NCBI GenBank assembly: GCA_963828735.1
Contig: CAWHFW010000003.1
Location: 32,001 to 96,000, forward strand
Direction of reading: 5' to 3'
DNA length: 64,000 nucleotides
DNA from: an uncultured Gemmatimonadales bacterium
GTDB lineage: Bacteria > Gemmatimonadota > Gemmatimonadetes > Gemmatimonadales > GWC2-71-9
The position numbers are program-made. Below are positions 43,301 through 49,300 of the stretch, one piece after another (position 1 is the stretch's first letter; each line of letters opens with the position of its first letter).

Positions 43301-46300
43301 GACCCCTGTCGCTCGACCTCGCCCCGGCCCCAGTTGACGCCCCACCATCGCGTGTCGCGATCGTGAGCTGGAATCTGTGGATCGGCCGGGGAAGGCTGGC
43401 CGAGGTCATCGGCCGGGTACGGGACCGCGTCGAGGCGCCGGTCATCGTGCTCCTCCAGGAGGCGTTCCGTGCCGATGCATCCATCCCCGCGAGCCGGGGC
43501 GTTCGCCGGGCCGCCGGCGCCTTTCCGCCCCGCACGGTCCCGCGCGCGGACATCGCCGAGATGGCCCGGGAGCTCCGGCTCAACCTGCGGTACGTCCCAT
43601 CCATGCGGAACGGGGTCCGGCCGAGCGACCGCGGCAATGCGATCCTCTCTGATCTCCCCCTCAGCGAAGCACGCGCCTTCGAGCTGCCGCTCGTGCTGCA
43701 GCGGCGCGTCCCGCTGGTGGCGACGGTGGAAATGTCGGGTGGACTGCTCCACGTGGTGAGCGCGCATCTCGACCCGCGCGGCCCCGCGGGCGCCGAATGG
43801 CTTGGCGGCCCCGGACGTGCCCGGCAAACCGGCTACCTCCTCGATCGTACCGAGGCTGACCTCGTTGCCCTGGGCGCGGATCTCAACCTCGCCCGTGGCA
43901 CACGCGAGCAGAGCTGGCGTCTGCTGCAGGATGCCGGCTTTACGGCGGGGGTGCCGCCGGTGCGGCACCAGTGGCGACACACCTTTCACGCTCTGCCGCG
44001 GCTGGTGCTCGACTACATCCTGGTGCGAGACCGCGGCGGGTGCGTCCGCGCCGCGCAGGTCGAGCGCCTGGACGAGCACCCGAACGATCGCGGGCCGACC
44101 GTCTTCGGGTCCGACCACCATCCCCTCCTCGCCCGGCTCGAGCTCGCCCCCGAAGGGGTCGTGACATGAGCGACCTGTTCTCCGCCGGGCTCCCGTGGTG
44201 GGGCTGGGCGCTGATGGCGCTCGGCCTCATCGCACTCGTATCCGTGCTGGGGGCGCTGTTCCTCCCCGACTGGAAGGAGTCCGACTACACGCTCGGCCAG
44301 ACCGCCGAGCCCGGCAGCGAGCAGTTCGTCAACATGGCCGGTGCGTACCTCAACAACCCGGTGTATCGCGGCGGCACGGTCGAGCTGCTCCAGAACGGCG
44401 ACCGGTTCTATCCCGCGATGCTCGACGCGATTCGCACGGCCAGGGACACGATCAACTTCGAGGTCTACATCTTCGACCCCGACGAGATCGGGCGCGCGTT
44501 CATGGACGCGTTCCTCGAGCGCGCCCGCGCCGGCGTGGAGGTCCGGGTCCTGGTGGACGCCTTCGGCTCGTTCAAGCTGCGCAAGCGGCACCGGAACGAG
44601 CTCCGCCAGGGAGGAGTGAAGGTCGAGCGATTCCGGCCCTTCGGCCTGAGCAACCTGGTGCGCGTCTACCGCCGGACCCACCGGCGAGCCATCGTCGTGG
44701 ACGGGCGGGTGGCCTTCACCGGGGGCGCCGCGATCTCGAAGAAATGGGCGGGTGACGTTCGGACCGAGCATGAGTGGCGGGACAGCATGCTGCGGATCAC
44801 GGGACCCCTGGTCGGCGGCATCCAGTCGGCCTTCACCGAGAACTGGATCTACTGCACGGGCGAAGTCCTCGCGGGCGAGCGCTTCTTCCCGCCCGCGGAA
44901 GCTGGGCCCGGCCCCTGCAGCATCTCGGTGGTGAGCTCGCCGTCCGACGCGCAACAGCCCATCCGGCTGCTCTTCTGGCTCACCATGGCCAACGCCCGGC
45001 GACGGCTGTGGATCTGCAACTCCTATTTCATCCCCGACCCGCGCCTCCGGACGGCGGTGGTGGAGCGCGCGCGGAAGGGAGTGGATGTGCGGGTCCTCGT
45101 GCCCGGCAACCACACCGACGCGATCCCGGTGCAGCTCGCGGGTCGGAGCTACTACGAGGAGCTGCTCGACGCGGGCGTCCGGATCTTCGAGTTCCAGCCC
45201 GCGATGATGCACGCGAAAACCATCGTCGCCGACGAGATGTGGTCGGTCCTCGGCTCCGCGAACATGGATGAGCGAAGCATGGAGCTCAACGAGGAGAATA
45301 TCGTCGGCATCGCTGACGAGGAGCTGGCCCGCACCGTCGCGTCGGGCCTCGAGGCGGATTTCGGCCGGTCGAAGGAGGTCCGGCTGGAGGAGTGGCGGAG
45401 GCGGCCCACGTGGCAGCGTGGGATGGAGGCGGTGGCGAAGGTGTTGATCGAGCAGTACTAGGCGGGCGCGCCGGACGATCACGCGATCGTCCGGCCGCCG
45501 GACTCTCCTGCCTCACCCTCCCGCGATCGCCGCCACCACCGTGATCTCATCCCCGGAACGCACCGGCGTCGCGAACCCGCTGCGAAACCGGATGTCCTCG
45601 TCGTTCAGATAGTACGTGACGAACGGATAAGGTCCGCCCGTCTCGTCGCGCAGTCTCGGCGCGAGCCGCGGAAAGCGGTCCGCGATGGCGGCGACGACTT
45701 CACCGAGCGTCTCGCCGGTGGCATCGATCGTGGCCTGGCCGTCCGCCAGGCGGGCCAGCACGGTGGGCAGGCTAAAGGTCACGGCCATACAGAGCCTCCA
45801 GTTCGCGGATGCGCGGCGCGATGATCGGAGCGTCGGGCAGGGCGCCGTGCAGTGCCTCGACGGTCTTGAGTCCGTTGCCGGTGATGCAGAGGACGAGCTC
45901 GTCCTCGGGGGCCAATCTTCCGTCCTTTGCCAGGGCGAGCGCGGCCGCCACCGTGACACCGCCCGCGGTTTCGGTGAAGACACCGGTCGTCTCGGCCAGC
46001 AGCTTGATCCCCTCGACCAGCGCGGCATCGGATACGCCCGTGGCCCAACCGCCGCTCCGGCGGATCGCGCTCGCCGCGAACCCGCCGTCCGCGGGATTCC
46101 CGATCGCGATCGAGCGCGCGATGGTATCGGGCACCACCGGCGACACGTGCTCGCCGCCCCGCTCCACGAGGTGCACGATCGGGGCGCATCCCGCGGCCTG
46201 CGCGCCGTACAGCCGCGGCGCAGCGCCGGACACCAGGCCGGCGTCGGTGAATTCCCGGAAGCCCTTCTCGAGCTTGGTCAGGAGCGAGCCCCCCGCCATC

Positions 46301-49300
46301 GGAGCGACGACTGCCGTCGGGAGCCGCCAGCCCAGCTGCTCGGCGATCTCGAACGCCATGGTCTTCGAGCCTTCGCCGTAGTAGCTCCGGAGGTTGATGT
46401 TGACGAGGCCCCACCCGTAGCGATCGGCCACCTGCGCGCAGAGTCGGTTCACGTCGTCGTAGGTGCCGCGCACGCGCACGAGCCGTGGGTTGTACACCGC
46501 GGTCCCGACGACCTTGCCGAGCTCGAGATCGTGCGGGATGAAGATCCAAGCCGGCAAGCCGGCGCGGGCGGCCTGCGCCGCGACCGCGTTGGCCAGATTG
46601 CCGGTCGAGGCGCACCCCACCACCTCGAGGCCCAGCCCGAGCGCGGCGTTGAGGGCCGACGCGACGACCCGGTCCTTGAAGCTGAGCGATGGGTGGCTCA
46701 CGGCGTCGTTCTTGACCCACACCCGCGCCACGCCGAGCCGACGGGCGAGGGCGGGAGCGTCGAGCAGCGGGGTGAACCCGCTGTCGAGCGAGACCACAGG
46801 CTCGCCATCGAACGGCAGCCACTCCCGGTAGCGCCAGAGGGACGGTGCGCGGGCCGCGATCGTCGCGGCATCGGGGAGCTTTCGCCCGACGTCGTACGCG
46901 GGCTCTAGCGGGCCGAGACATTCATCGCAGGTTGCCGAGGCGGCGGCAGGCTGCGGTGTCCCGCAGAGTCGGCAGACGAGGGAGAGCGGCCGAGGACCGC
47001 GCGGCCGTGCGACGGCTTCGGAGGAAGTCGGGTCGAGCGGAAGGTCGAGAAGCGTCGTCATTGCGTGAGTTCCCGCCCCGGGCTCCCGAAGCGTCTCTCA
47101 GCGCCGAGCCAAATGAAAAAGCGCCCGGTGCCAAAAAGACACTCGGGACGCGAGGCTTTTTAGCATTTGTTTAACGTGGCTGCAATAGGCCGCAAATTGC
47201 CACGAAGTCAGTTGTCTGTGTCAGTGTACGTAATCGGGTGGGGGGACGCAAGAGGGTTCGATCGGCCGACCGCGTCCTACCAGTCCCTTCCCTCGGACCC
47301 GCCTCCGTTCGACCGCCGCCCCTCGTGGCTCGCGAGCTGCTCGCGTTGCACGGCCTCGAGCAGCTGTCGCGCCTGGTCGGCGTCGAGCTCCTTTACCGAC
47401 TCGCCCTCCCCCGCGCCGAAGCCGCCGCCAGCCATGGCGCCCGACGCGGCCTCCGGATTCCCCTCGTAGCCGGGCACGTTCATGTTGCCGCGACCGTAGT
47501 CGGCGGAGCGGCCGCGGCCCGAGGACCCGCCCTTCATGCGGTCCTCTTCCAGCCGCTGCAGCGCCAGCTCGAGGTTCCACTTGGCGTCCTGGTCCGCCGG
47601 ATCCAGACGCAGCGCCTCCTCGTACGCGCCGACCGCGTCGAGCAGCAGTTGGCCCCGCTCGGGTGCCTCCTCGGCGGCGCGGACGAGCGCGTTGCCGAGG
47701 TTGAAGACGCTCTGCTGTCGGAGCTGGAGCCGTCCGGCCGCGTAGCGGTACCGCGCGGCCGCGTCCTCGTAGCGCTTCATGCGATAGTAGGCGTTCCCCG
47801 CGTTGTACGCCCGGACCGGCGTGCTGTCCGCGGCCAACGCGAGGTCGAATAGCTTGGCCGAGCCGGCGAAGTCGCCGGAGGCGTAGAGCCGCTCGCCCTT
47901 CCTGGCGTCGAGCGACCCCCGCGCGCAGCCGCCGTTCAGGAGCAGCAGAAGCGGCAGCAGCACGGCGGCGACCGCGTGCGCACGCGCGCGCACTGGCACG
48001 GGTGTCCGCCGGCGCCGTACGCGGGCGGCCAGCCACATCTCGCCGAGCAGCGCGATGACGGCCAGCGCCAGCGGCCACTGAAAGCGGTCCGCATGCTCGG
48101 TCACCTGTTGGGTCGAGAGGGTGCGGGTGCGGACCTCGGCGAGCGCTTCGCGCAGCGCCTTGCGATCGTCGGCACGGGCAGCCCGTGCATACGCGCCACC
48201 CGTCAGCTTCGCCGCGGTCCGGAGCTCGTTCTCCTCCAGGCGCGAGATCGCGACTCGTCCGATGTGATCGCGATGGAACTTCTCCGGCGCCTCCGAGCTG
48301 TCGGCCGGCACCGGGCCGCCGCCGCTCGTGCCGACGCCGAGCGCGAACACCGGGATGCCCTCGCCGCGGAGGCTCGCGGTCGCGGCCTCGAGATCGCCCT
48401 CGTCGCTCTCGCCGTCGCTCGCGAGGAGCACGGCGCGGTGGCCGCGGTCGCCTTCGTGCTCGAAGACCTTGCCGGCCGTGGCGAGCGCAGTCCCGATGTC
48501 GGTCGCGGGGTCGCCGAGGTCGTCGGGCGTCGCGGCATCGAGGAACAGCTTGAAGGTCGCGTGATCCGAGGTGAGCGGGAGCTGCAGGAACGCGCTGCCG
48601 CCGAACACGACGAGCCCGACCCGATCGCCCGGCGACGCGGAGACCACCTCCCACACCGCATCCTTCGCCGCCGCCAGCCGGGTCGGCGACACGTCGGTCA
48701 CCGTCATCGAGCGCGAGAGATCCAGCACCACCAGCAGGTCCCTGCCCGTCCGCGCGAGCTCCGCCGGCCGCTCGCCGAGCTGCGGGCGCGCGAGCGCGAG
48801 CACGCCCAGCCCGAGCGCCGATGCCTGCAACCACGCGCGGAGGCGCGCGGTGCGTCCGTCGCTCAGGCTCGATCCACGCTCCAGCACCGCCGGCTCGCCG
48901 AACGCACGAAGCTCGGCCTCCCGCCGCCGCGTGCCGAGGAGCAGCGCGCGCAGCGTGACCGGCACGAGCACCACGCCGAGCAGGAGGACGGCCGGCCAGG
49001 CGAAGCTCATGGGACGCTCCGGAGTCGCGTCGCGCCCAGAACGAGGCCGGCGGCCAGCAGGAGGAGACCCGGCGCGAGCGCGTACGCGTACAGCTCGCGG
49101 TAATCGCGGGTCTCGCTGATCTTCACGTCCCGCCGCTCGATCGGATCGATCGCGCTCAGGATGTGGGTGAGCGCCTCCGGATCGGTCGCCCGGAAGTACC
49201 GGCCGCCGCTCCGATCCGAGATCCGCTTGAGGATCACCTCGTCGCCGCTGGTGAGGCGGTCGGGTGTCCGTCCACCCCAGCGCCAGATGAACCGCTTGTC

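Follow-up and report, generated by a model that had tools for sequence, protein, structure and literature searches.

Putative MetM/MetO homocysteine synthesis behind a SAM-II riboswitch in Gemmatimonadota

Introduction

Why would a gene annotated as threonine synthase (thrC), together with a gene for a sulfur carrier, be placed behind a SAM riboswitch? A survey had noted this arrangement in a 64,000-nucleotide stretch of DNA (the window) from the genome of an uncultured Gemmatimonadales bacterium (G000), and had proposed that the two genes encode MetM and its carrier MetO. A MetM/MetO route operating with MoeZ and Mec is known from Streptomyces albulus (Hasebe et al. 2024, Appl Environ Microbiol 90:e01247-24, as cited in the portions available to us of 10.1101/2024.10.14.618325 and PMC12172450), and MetM is frequently misannotated as ThrC (GapMind 2026). 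Here we report that the window pair, putatively MetM/MetO, very probably converts O-phosphohomoserine to homocysteine, with an actinomycete pair serving as proxy for S. albulus MetM. The regulation of the pair, the order of its genes, the place of the enzyme in a tree and the genomic setting all support this identity, and the standing thrC annotation of the enzyme is most likely a misnaming.

The leader and the gene pair

The proposed SAM-II riboswitch ahead of the pair exceeds the gathering score of its family and is the sole Rfam match at that level in the whole window (Table 1). The 3' end of its core, GCUAAAAAGC (47164-47155, minus strand), belongs to a SAM-II core that is invariant in 13 aligned leaders. 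The second SAM-II reported by the survey was recovered immediately ahead of metH, and a genome-wide SAM-II search gave no match at the MetX/MetY route of G000.

Downstream of the core we predict an intrinsic terminator, which a strict terminator scanner did not call in the window leader because the stem is bulged. The inner strand of this terminator (47138-47130) is alternatively predicted to pair with the aptamer 3' strand over 9 bp, forming an antiterminator. Whole-leader minimum free energy folds were dominated by downstream pairing, and leaders were compared with shuffled sequences in a local fold test. A terminator-like structure was present in 78 of 85 homologous leaders (76 of 255 shuffles), and an antiterminator helix of at least 7 bp in 52 of 85 (61 of 255 shuffles). 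The predicted and conserved structure is consistent with a transcriptional SAM switch. At low SAM, the aptamer 3' strand would pair into the downstream hairpin and permit read-through; with SAM bound, the pseudoknot would retain this strand and the terminator would form.

Table 1. Features of the window (plain positions) and of contig C5 of G000 (prefix C5)
Feature	Position	Strand	Description
SAM-II aptamer (Rfam RF00521, SAM_alpha)	47140-47213	-	42.5 bits, gathering score 36, E 3.3e-6
Predicted intrinsic terminator	47113..47151	-	bulged hairpin 47151-47121, -18.6 kcal/mol, then UUUUUCAU
metM-like ThrC-fold PLP enzyme	45772..47061	-	429 aa; TIGR00260 thrC, PF00291
metO-like ThiS/MoaD-family sulfur carrier	45513..45788	-	91 aa; PF02597 ThiS, 43 bits, cut 22.5
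Carrier-MoeZ fusion and JAMM protein	C5:149922-151783		
thrA-thrB-thrC	C5:338211-343123		
Second SAM-II, ahead of metH	C5:1246023-1246092		41.7 bits

The carrier is a ThiS-like protein, as the survey had stated; it ends in ...AIAGG, a free Gly-Gly, and its ORF overlaps the metM-like ORF by 17 nt at the metM stop. The enzyme passes the TIGR00260 thrC cut (261 bits, cut 167), has its PLP lysine at K129 and a CxxC...CxxC near the N terminus, and is approximately 35% identical to the ThrC encoded by the thr operon, the existence of which as a separate locus in G000 was confirmed. A search of the ESM Atlas returned generic family names only. Several positions conserved in the solved short ThrC proteins differ in the window protein: by the numbering of Thermus thermophilus ThrC (1UIM), T88, N154-S155, R160 and N188 correspond to L, N-I-N, Y and G. 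We take T88, R160 and N188 to be phosphate-binding residues in catalysis, and in our alignment these three are replaced (L, Y, G or S) in 15 of 15 members of the clade described below.

Is the product cysteine instead?

Carrier-dependent cysteine synthesis is known in Mycobacterium, and this precedent raises the alternative that the two genes encode a cysteine synthase of the CysM/CysO type, using phosphoserine and the carrier, or a cysteate synthase, with the riboswitch reporting sulfur status. Loci of Anaeromyxobacter in which the neighbors are sulfite-reductase-like and CysK-like (our labels, from sequence) would fit such a role. By contrast, the cysteate synthase model gave the window enzyme 68.7 bits against a cut of 324.9 and the cysteine synthase model 24 bits, and the genes that join the metM operon in relatives are thrB, hom and aspartokinase genes instead of serine genes. 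Moreover, G000 possesses a separate CysM-like gene, which has Mec and another carrier as neighbors. We consider a cysteine or cysteate product very improbable.

That separate unit lies in the C5 cluster to which the survey had assigned the activating enzymes. The carrier-MoeZ fusion and the JAMM protein are indeed present there; the cluster also contains an Rrf2 regulator and a gene resembling cysteine synthase B, and as a whole it looks like a CysM/carrier/Mec/MoeZ unit. Its MoeZ, the sole MoeZ match in G000, would be shared with metO, and the C5 MoeZ and Mec would serve the window carrier.

An actinomycete counterpart and the position of the enzyme in a tree

A scan of genome contigs gave matches in close relatives only, and a search of a plasmid collection yielded one actinomycete match. 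The Nonomuraea locus, used here as a proxy for S. albulus MetM/MetO, has a SAM-I leader (68.7 bits), an enzyme 48% identical to that of the window and a GG carrier 36% identical to the window carrier. The arrangement is the same as that given for S. albulus metM-metO in the available text of PMC12172450, which reports an upstream SAM riboswitch. In our tree, the window protein groups with 12 other Gemmatimonadota and Anaeromyxobacter proteins, the Nonomuraea enzyme and a metagenome sequence; a branch with support of 100/99 splits this 15-member clade from two thr-operon ThrC proteins, in a small tree that carries a long-branch warning.

The same text describes a Microcystis ThrC that is 51.6% identical to MetM and has an adjacent metO-like gene; in vitro it acts as a threonine synthase, and the authors concluded that in vivo it does not fully perform the function of MetM (PMC12172450). 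It is thus conceivable that the window enzyme is bifunctional or chiefly a threonine synthase, with homocysteine only a side or conditional product. The score above the TIGR00260 cut points the same way, as do 10 of the 41 phylum genomes with an orthologue, in which the metM-like gene is the only TIGR00260 match (1e-50); five of these 10 are genomes with ThrB and the PanB paralogue discussed below. However, SAM repression of a sole threonine source makes little sense, and a second TIGR00260 match, that is, a separate ThrC, is kept in G000 and 30 other orthologue genomes (31 of 41). The clade-wide replacement of T88, R160 and N188 and the carrier found near the enzyme in nearly every locus (see below) also argue against a threonine synthase, which we regard as unlikely.

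Distribution of the pair and of alternative homocysteine routes

Orthologues of metM were identified in 41 of 151 genomes of the phylum. Among 53 well-flanked loci, with at least 1.5 kb available on each side, a carrier lies within 4.2 kb of the enzyme in 52, the SAM-II motif is present in 46, and the neighborhood includes moeZ in 35 and thrB (homoserine kinase) in 21. The survey's statement that a carrier follows the enzyme in all cases does not hold in this larger sample: of the 77 loci whose downstream sequence extends for 400 nt or more, 46 have the carrier immediately after the enzyme. An upstream SAM-II in most loci was also claimed, and 25 of 29 loci have one above the Rfam cut within 1.5 kb on either side. 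The four misses within that distance are G054, where Rfam places a SAM-II farther upstream, G055 and G040, where one was recognized farther upstream by motif only, and G111.

In G000, thrA, asd, thrB and metH provide for phosphohomoserine supply and methionine synthase, and a search of 40 orthologue genomes found ThrB in 37. A match to TIGR01392 (MetX) is absent at 1e-30 from 26 of the 41 genomes, one of which has MetA. Both MetX and MetA are therefore without a match in 25 of 41, and MetH or MetE is present in 23 of these 25; a search for methionine synthase (MetH/MetE) found none in G114 and G028, each with a metM-like gene. MetM/MetO appears to be the sole homocysteine route in most relatives and would fill the homocysteine gap in the 23 of 41 genomes where methionine synthase is accompanied by neither a MetX nor a MetA match. 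Two PF01053 enzymes, able in principle to use phosphohomoserine, were found in each of five genomes tested. Mec was searched for and not found in G004, G007, G054 and G073, all of which keep the operon.

As the survey had noted, G000 itself has both metY and a MetX homologue, located on C2. At 200 bits, a threshold of our own that is below the curated cut of 500, MetX is present in G000 and nine other orthologue genomes, none of which reaches the curated cut. Since G000 has MetX at this level as well as MetY, the MetM/MetO route is redundant there. A simple exclusion between metM and metX across the phylum was not observed: MetX of at least 200 bits occurs in 10 of 41 genomes with metM and in 33 of 110 without it. 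When the comparison is restricted to genomes with hom, the counts are 10 of 29 with metM and 32 of 48 without.

A PanB paralogue in relatives

A paralogue of PanB in which the pocket is narrowed, absent from G000, is encoded in 12 of 151 genomes, mostly led by SAM-II and often adjacent to an aminotransferase gene. Its MetM operons span at least seven genera in two Gemmatimonadota families, and a SAM-I-led copy is present on an unrelated metagenome contig. Residues D45, S46, D84, K112, E114, H136 and E181 (E. coli numbers), the metal and catalytic residues of PanB, show no variation among the 28 paralogues and 19 canonical PanB proteins compared. By contrast, the canonical pocket (V179, V or I at 212, V214) is not retained in the paralogue: L179-L212-I214 is found in 26 of 26 copies in a methionine context and in none of the 22 copies next to panC. 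The 65-sequence clade likewise includes no member adjacent to panC. The aminotransferases were considered as GntC and rejected, as their NCBIfam scores (242-312 bits, cut 415) reflect generic class I similarity.

Homoserine dehydrogenase is missing from 11 of the 12 paralogue genomes. In five, aspartokinase and Asd are also absent, and the PanB paralogue, ThrB, MetM and methionine synthase are all retained. Among metM genomes, the paralogue is present in 10 of 12 without hom and 1 of 29 with hom (Fisher test p 6e-7, not counted as evidence owing to the non-independence of related genomes), and it occupies the operon slot held by hom in other genomes. These observations suggest, and we lean toward the view, that the relatives have a natural, aspartate-independent origin of homoserine, from pyruvate and methylene-THF via 4-hydroxy-2-oxobutanoate.

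It may be, although we think it somewhat improbable, that the paralogue works in reverse, from imported homoserine via 4-hydroxy-2-oxobutanoate to pyruvate and methylene-THF, or acts on another 2-oxo acid, with homoserine being taken up. PanB was used in the cleaving direction in engineered E. coli (Bouzon 2017, as described in the available part of PMC6966089), a hom match is lacking in 74 of 151 genomes, only 11 of which have the paralogue, and the same pocket signature also occurs in sugar clusters unconnected with methionine. There are exceptions to the hom pattern, namely G060 and G114 (metM, neither hom nor the paralogue), G089 (both) and G076 (SAM-II-panB2, no metM match). The near-confinement of the paralogue to hom-less genomes, its place in the hom slot and the five genomes that keep ThrB, MetM and methionine synthase without aspartokinase, Asd and hom all argue against this reading, and no transporter was recognized in the paralogue operons, as seen without a dedicated search. 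In the reverse direction, the methylene-THF would supply the methyl group of methionine.

Proposed mechanism

We propose that metM and metO form a two-gene operon controlled by SAM-II at the level of transcription. In G000, ThrA and ThrB, the genes for which are present, would supply O-phospho-L-homoserine, and MoeZ would adenylate and thiocarboxylate the C-terminal Gly of the carrier. On the PLP enzyme, phosphate would be lost and the carrier thiocarboxylate would join the gamma carbon, as opposed to water at the beta carbon; we model this step on the account of Streptomyces MetM in GapMind 2026. Release of homocysteine may or may not involve the Mec protease; the SAM-II-led MetH would methylate the product, and the route would work alongside that of MetX/MetY. 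In the relatives with the paralogue, PanB2 would join pyruvate and methylene-THF (or formaldehyde) to give 4-hydroxy-2-oxobutanoate, a class I aminotransferase would form homoserine, ThrB would phosphorylate it, and MetM/MetO would add sulfur. If so, the four carbons of homocysteine derive from pyruvate and a C1 unit, without aspartokinase, Asd or homoserine dehydrogenase.

Comparison with known systems

In the CysM/CysO/Mec/MoeZ system of Mycobacterium and in HcyS of Wolinella, a PLP enzyme receives its sulfur from the thiocarboxylate of a protein, as proposed here. The window system differs in its predicted substrate, phosphohomoserine, and in an enzyme that is ThrC-like, not CysM- or MetY-like. 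With the short ThrC proteins (T. thermophilus 1UIM, A. aeolicus 2ZSJ, B. subtilis 6CGQ) the enzyme shares the fold family and the PLP lysine; it differs in its separate branch, the replaced T88, R160 and N188, SAM control and the carrier partner.

The closest parallel is S. albulus MetM/MetO, to the extent that the available parts of the cited papers describe it: a ThrC-like enzyme, wrongly annotated as threonine synthase, whose gene precedes that of a sulfur carrier and is led by a SAM riboswitch, in a genome that also encodes MoeZ and a JAMM protein. The differences here are SAM-II with a terminator (the actinomycete proxy has a leader of the SAM-I clan), a Gemmatimonadota host, the coexistence of MetX/MetY in G000, a modular operon (thrB, moeZ, hom or the PanB paralogue, aminotransferase) and the four relatives in which Mec was not found. 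The MetM/MetO route itself is known, and SAM-II control is the variant. By itself, the window result is a moderate one that corrects a thrC misannotation; it would extend the route described in 2024 to a major soil phylum, under a different class of SAM riboswitch.

For the PanB paralogue, the comparison is with engineered 4-hydroxy-2-oxobutanoate (HOB) pathways, homoserine formation of this kind not being known to date outside engineered bacteria. In the available portions of PMC6966089, PMC8879981 and 10.1101/2025.02.17.638773, PanB interconverts pyruvate plus C1 and HOB, and a transaminase interconverts HOB and homoserine; in P. putida, a strain deleted for hom was partly rescued when panB was overexpressed and sarcosine provided the formaldehyde. 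These portions term HOB non-natural or non-native, and the enzymes used were promiscuous, whereas in the relatives studied here the PanB paralogue is dedicated, conserved and SAM-led. If this paralogue makes 4-hydroxy-2-oxobutanoate, the compound is a real intermediate despite that description, homoserine can be made in the cell by two different routes, and engineers of C1 assimilation gain a HOB synthase and a transaminase shaped by evolution.

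Identity of the SAM-II-led pair

The SAM-II riboswitch is the sole match of the window (G000:C3:32001-96000) at the Rfam gathering level. The survey's finding had taken the two genes behind it for a homocysteine-forming pair of the MetM/MetO type, a ThrC-like PLP enzyme with its sulfur carrier, and riboswitch score, tree position and gene co-occurrence fit that reading.

Features of the window, of its genome (G000) and of collected loci (L numbers); C numbers are contigs
Feature	Position or locus	Strand	Description
SAM-II (SAM_alpha) riboswitch	47140-47213	minus	Rfam, 42.5 bits (gathering score 36)
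PLP enzyme, 429 aa	45772-47061		downstream of SAM-II; TIGR00260, 261 bits (cutoff 167)
ThiS-family carrier, 91 aa	45513-45788		C terminus AIAGG; 17-nt overlap with PLP enzyme gene
L251	G000:C5:149922-153271		Rrf2, cysteine synthase B-like, JAMM, carrier(GG)-linker-MoeZ fusion
L002, third ThrC-like gene	G000:C1:145775-146968		PRK08197, 479 bits (cutoff 303)
SAM-II flanked by two aminotransferase copies	L180:2415-5000
Sugar-cluster PanB loci	L202, L206, L207, L213, L215-L219, L224, L226, L227, L230, L231, L233, L240, L193

Nonomuraea gerenzanensis, the sole match in the plasmid collection, served as a proxy for Streptomyces MetM. Its enzyme is 48% identical to that of the window over 404 columns, its GG carrier is 36% identical to the window carrier, and the locus has a SAM-I riboswitch (68.7 bits). 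In a tree of 18 proteins, for which the tree tool gave a long-branch warning, the window protein, 12 Gemmatimonadota and Anaeromyxobacter orthologues, the Nonomuraea enzyme and that of a metagenome contig (L190) share a branch (support 100/99) apart from two ThrCs of thr operons; the window enzyme and the ThrC of G000 are 35% identical. T88, R160 and N188 of T. thermophilus ThrC, which we take to be phosphate-binding positions, are conserved in three solved ThrCs and replaced in 15/15 clade members of the alignment.

In the leader, a hairpin (-18.6 kcal/mol) lies downstream of the aptamer and is followed by UUUUUCAU; its inner strand could instead form 9 bp with the aptamer 3' strand GCUAAAAAG. 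By our own criteria, and with a rough dinucleotide shuffle as control, a terminator-like hairpin with a U-tract occurs in 78 of 85 distinct homologous leaders versus 76 of 255 shuffles, and an antiterminator helix of at least 7 bp in 52 of 85 versus 61 of 255; a strict terminator scan did not call the window hairpin. SAM-II coupled to a terminator is already reported for alpha- and beta-proteobacteria (PMC2258182), and our literature search found no publication on a SAM-II riboswitch in a gemmatimonad.

What is directly observed is the gene set, its co-occurrence, the position of the enzyme in the tree, the score of the riboswitch and the conserved potential for a terminator; we consider it highly probable that the pair works as MetM and MetO. 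SAM binding would terminate transcription in the leader, MoeZ would thiocarboxylate the carrier, the PLP enzyme would perform a gamma-replacement on phosphohomoserine, and the homocysteine released would be methylated by MetH.

Related genes in the same genome

As the survey's finding had stated, a second SAM-II riboswitch precedes metH, and a separate thrC lies in a thrA-thrB-thrC operon; metY and a MetX homologue are also encoded. The sole MoeZ of G000 lies in L251, C-terminal to a second GG-ending carrier in a fusion protein. This cluster had been described as supplying the activating enzymes: the carrier-MoeZ fusion and the JAMM gene are indeed there, but the cysteine synthase B-like gene and the Rrf2 regulator had been missed. 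These two genes suggest that the cluster serves a carrier-dependent cysteine route and that its MoeZ is shared; its JAMM protein could cleave the carrier off MoeZ. The L002 protein forms a long branch of its own in the 18-protein tree. A riboswitch search of its locus found none, and its neighbors are presumably a uvrC-like gene on one side and a larC-like gene on the other.

Distribution of MetM loci

Orthologues of metM occur in 41 of 151 Gemmatimonadota genomes at 430 bits or more (next best match, 220 bits); for G008 and G028 the score alone is the basis of the count, and G057 carries an unpublished flag. A further 80 loci were collected; 53 of them have flanks of 1.5 kb or more in both directions and formed the census, and the 27 shorter ones were excluded. 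The census comprises a carrier at 52 loci, a SAM-II motif at 46, moeZ at 35, thrB (homoserine kinase) at 21, a PanB paralogue at 13, hom (homoserine dehydrogenase) at three and panC at none. The claim that a carrier always follows the enzyme does not hold in this larger sample: a carrier is nearby at 52/53 loci, but is immediately adjacent downstream at only 46/77. Since thrB lies in the same gene run, phosphohomoserine from that kinase is the substrate to which the loci point. ThrB was found in 37 of the 40 metM genomes searched, and 31 of the 41 have a second TIGR00260 match. A MetX match at 1e-30 is missing from 26 of the 41, weak in five and strong in 10; one of the 26 has MetA, and 23 of the remaining 25 have MetH or MetE.

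Several observations count against the MetM/MetO reading. MetX and MetY make the route redundant in G000; the metM-like gene is the only TIGR00260 match in 10 genomes; and a Microcystis homologue is reported to show threonine synthase activity (PMC12172450). No Mec/JAMM protease exceeded the Pfam cutoff in G004, G007, G054 and G073, which have the operon and where homocysteine release may do without Mec, and no methionine synthase match was found in G114 and G028.

A PanB paralogue in the operons of relatives

The PanB module is confined to relatives: G000 itself encodes hom, and its single panB is canonical and adjoins panC. Many loci in relatives run in the order SAM-II, in some cases an aminotransferase gene, panB, metM, thrB, carrier and moeZ, or in a permutation of it; at others hom occupies the panB slot. 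Of the 151 genomes, 12 encode the paralogue, which scores at least 390 bits where canonical copies reach 255 at most; all but one of these 12 possess a canonical panB as well. A hom match is present in one of the 12, versus 77 of 151 overall. Of the 41 metM genomes, 12 lack a hom match, and 10 of these, from seven genera in two families, have the paralogue; of the 29 with hom, one has it. In five genomes (G004, G007, G054, G073 and G120; 97-99% complete, fragmented, four from one genus) we found no aspartokinase (best 45 bits, cutoff 209), Asd (best 39, cutoff 301), hom, MetX or MetA; the paralogue, ThrB, MetM and methionine synthase are retained. In G073 a contig boundary interrupts the operon behind metM, and thrB is encoded on a different contig. 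L190 has the same design under SAM-I (60.4 bits), its enzyme being 48% and its paralogue 62% identical.

All paralogue sequences group in a single clade (100/99; 28 versus 19 sequences) and retain D45, S46, D84, K112, E114, H136 and E181 (E. coli numbering). They have fixed changes to L179, L212 and I214, a signature present in 26/26 met-context copies and 0/22 panC-adjacent copies; position 212 is already Ile in E. coli, so that only 179 and 214 are bulkier by that comparison. In E. coli PanB, smaller residues at I202, I212 or V214 are reported to widen the substrate range (PMC7610986). The bulkier residues would thus suit pyruvate or a similarly small 2-oxo acid.

We lean, with some reserve, toward an undescribed natural route to homoserine in these relatives, in which pyruvate and methylene-THF would yield 4-hydroxy-2-oxobutanoate (HOB) and an aminotransferase would convert it. 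In engineered E. coli, PanB is reported to split HOB into pyruvate and a THF-bound C1 unit (PMC6966089), and P. putida panB to rescue a hom deletion partly (10.1101/2025.02.17.638773); HOB has been termed non-native (PMC8879981). Our literature search, with subscription papers and bioRxiv supplements outside its scope, found no published natural route, and the accessible text of GapMind 2026 (10.1101/2024.10.14.618325) does not mention panB. Against the route stand 63 of the 151 genomes without hom or paralogue, G060 and G114 (metM, neither hom nor paralogue), G089 (both hom and paralogue), G076 (SAM-II and paralogue without metM), an aminotransferase gene that lies upstream of the riboswitch at L146 and L011 and is absent from other loci, and the same signature in 28/28 sugar-cluster copies that have a ThDP enzyme gene as neighbor.

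Those copies lie in low-GC sugar-nucleotide clusters next to an acetolactate-synthase-like ThDP gene, where their product may be a hydroxylated 2-oxo acid used to build a branched-chain sugar. SAM-II lies immediately upstream of the paralogue at L154 (G076:C13), L186 and L192; no metM follows in G076 and L186, so the paralogue can be SAM-controlled independently of metM. L180 looks as though the operon had acquired a duplicate of a neighboring gene. At G144:C9, G055:C57 and G084:C46, in genomes with the paralogue and without a hom match, thrB adjoins a second thrC, and threonine might therefore draw on the same homoserine source.

Comparison with known systems

The operon of the metM family is modular, and its form with PanB suggests a homoserine route not described before. 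In Anaeromyxobacter (Myxococcota; L111, L112 and L067), a SAM-II-led enzyme-carrier-moeZ operon adjoins sulfite-reductase-like and CysK-like genes; its enzyme is 74-75% identical to that of the window, so high a value across phyla that it suggests transfer. The Streptomyces route comprises MetO, Mec, MoeZ and MetM, the last frequently misannotated as threonine synthase, according to GapMind 2026 (10.1101/2024.10.14.618325). A SAM riboswitch is reported upstream of S. albulus metM, and the Microcystis homologue, 51.6% identical, adjoins a metO-like gene (PMC12172450). The window pair is very probably a new member of the MetM/MetO route, known since 2024, under another riboswitch class: SAM-II here, SAM-I in the Nonomuraea proxy.
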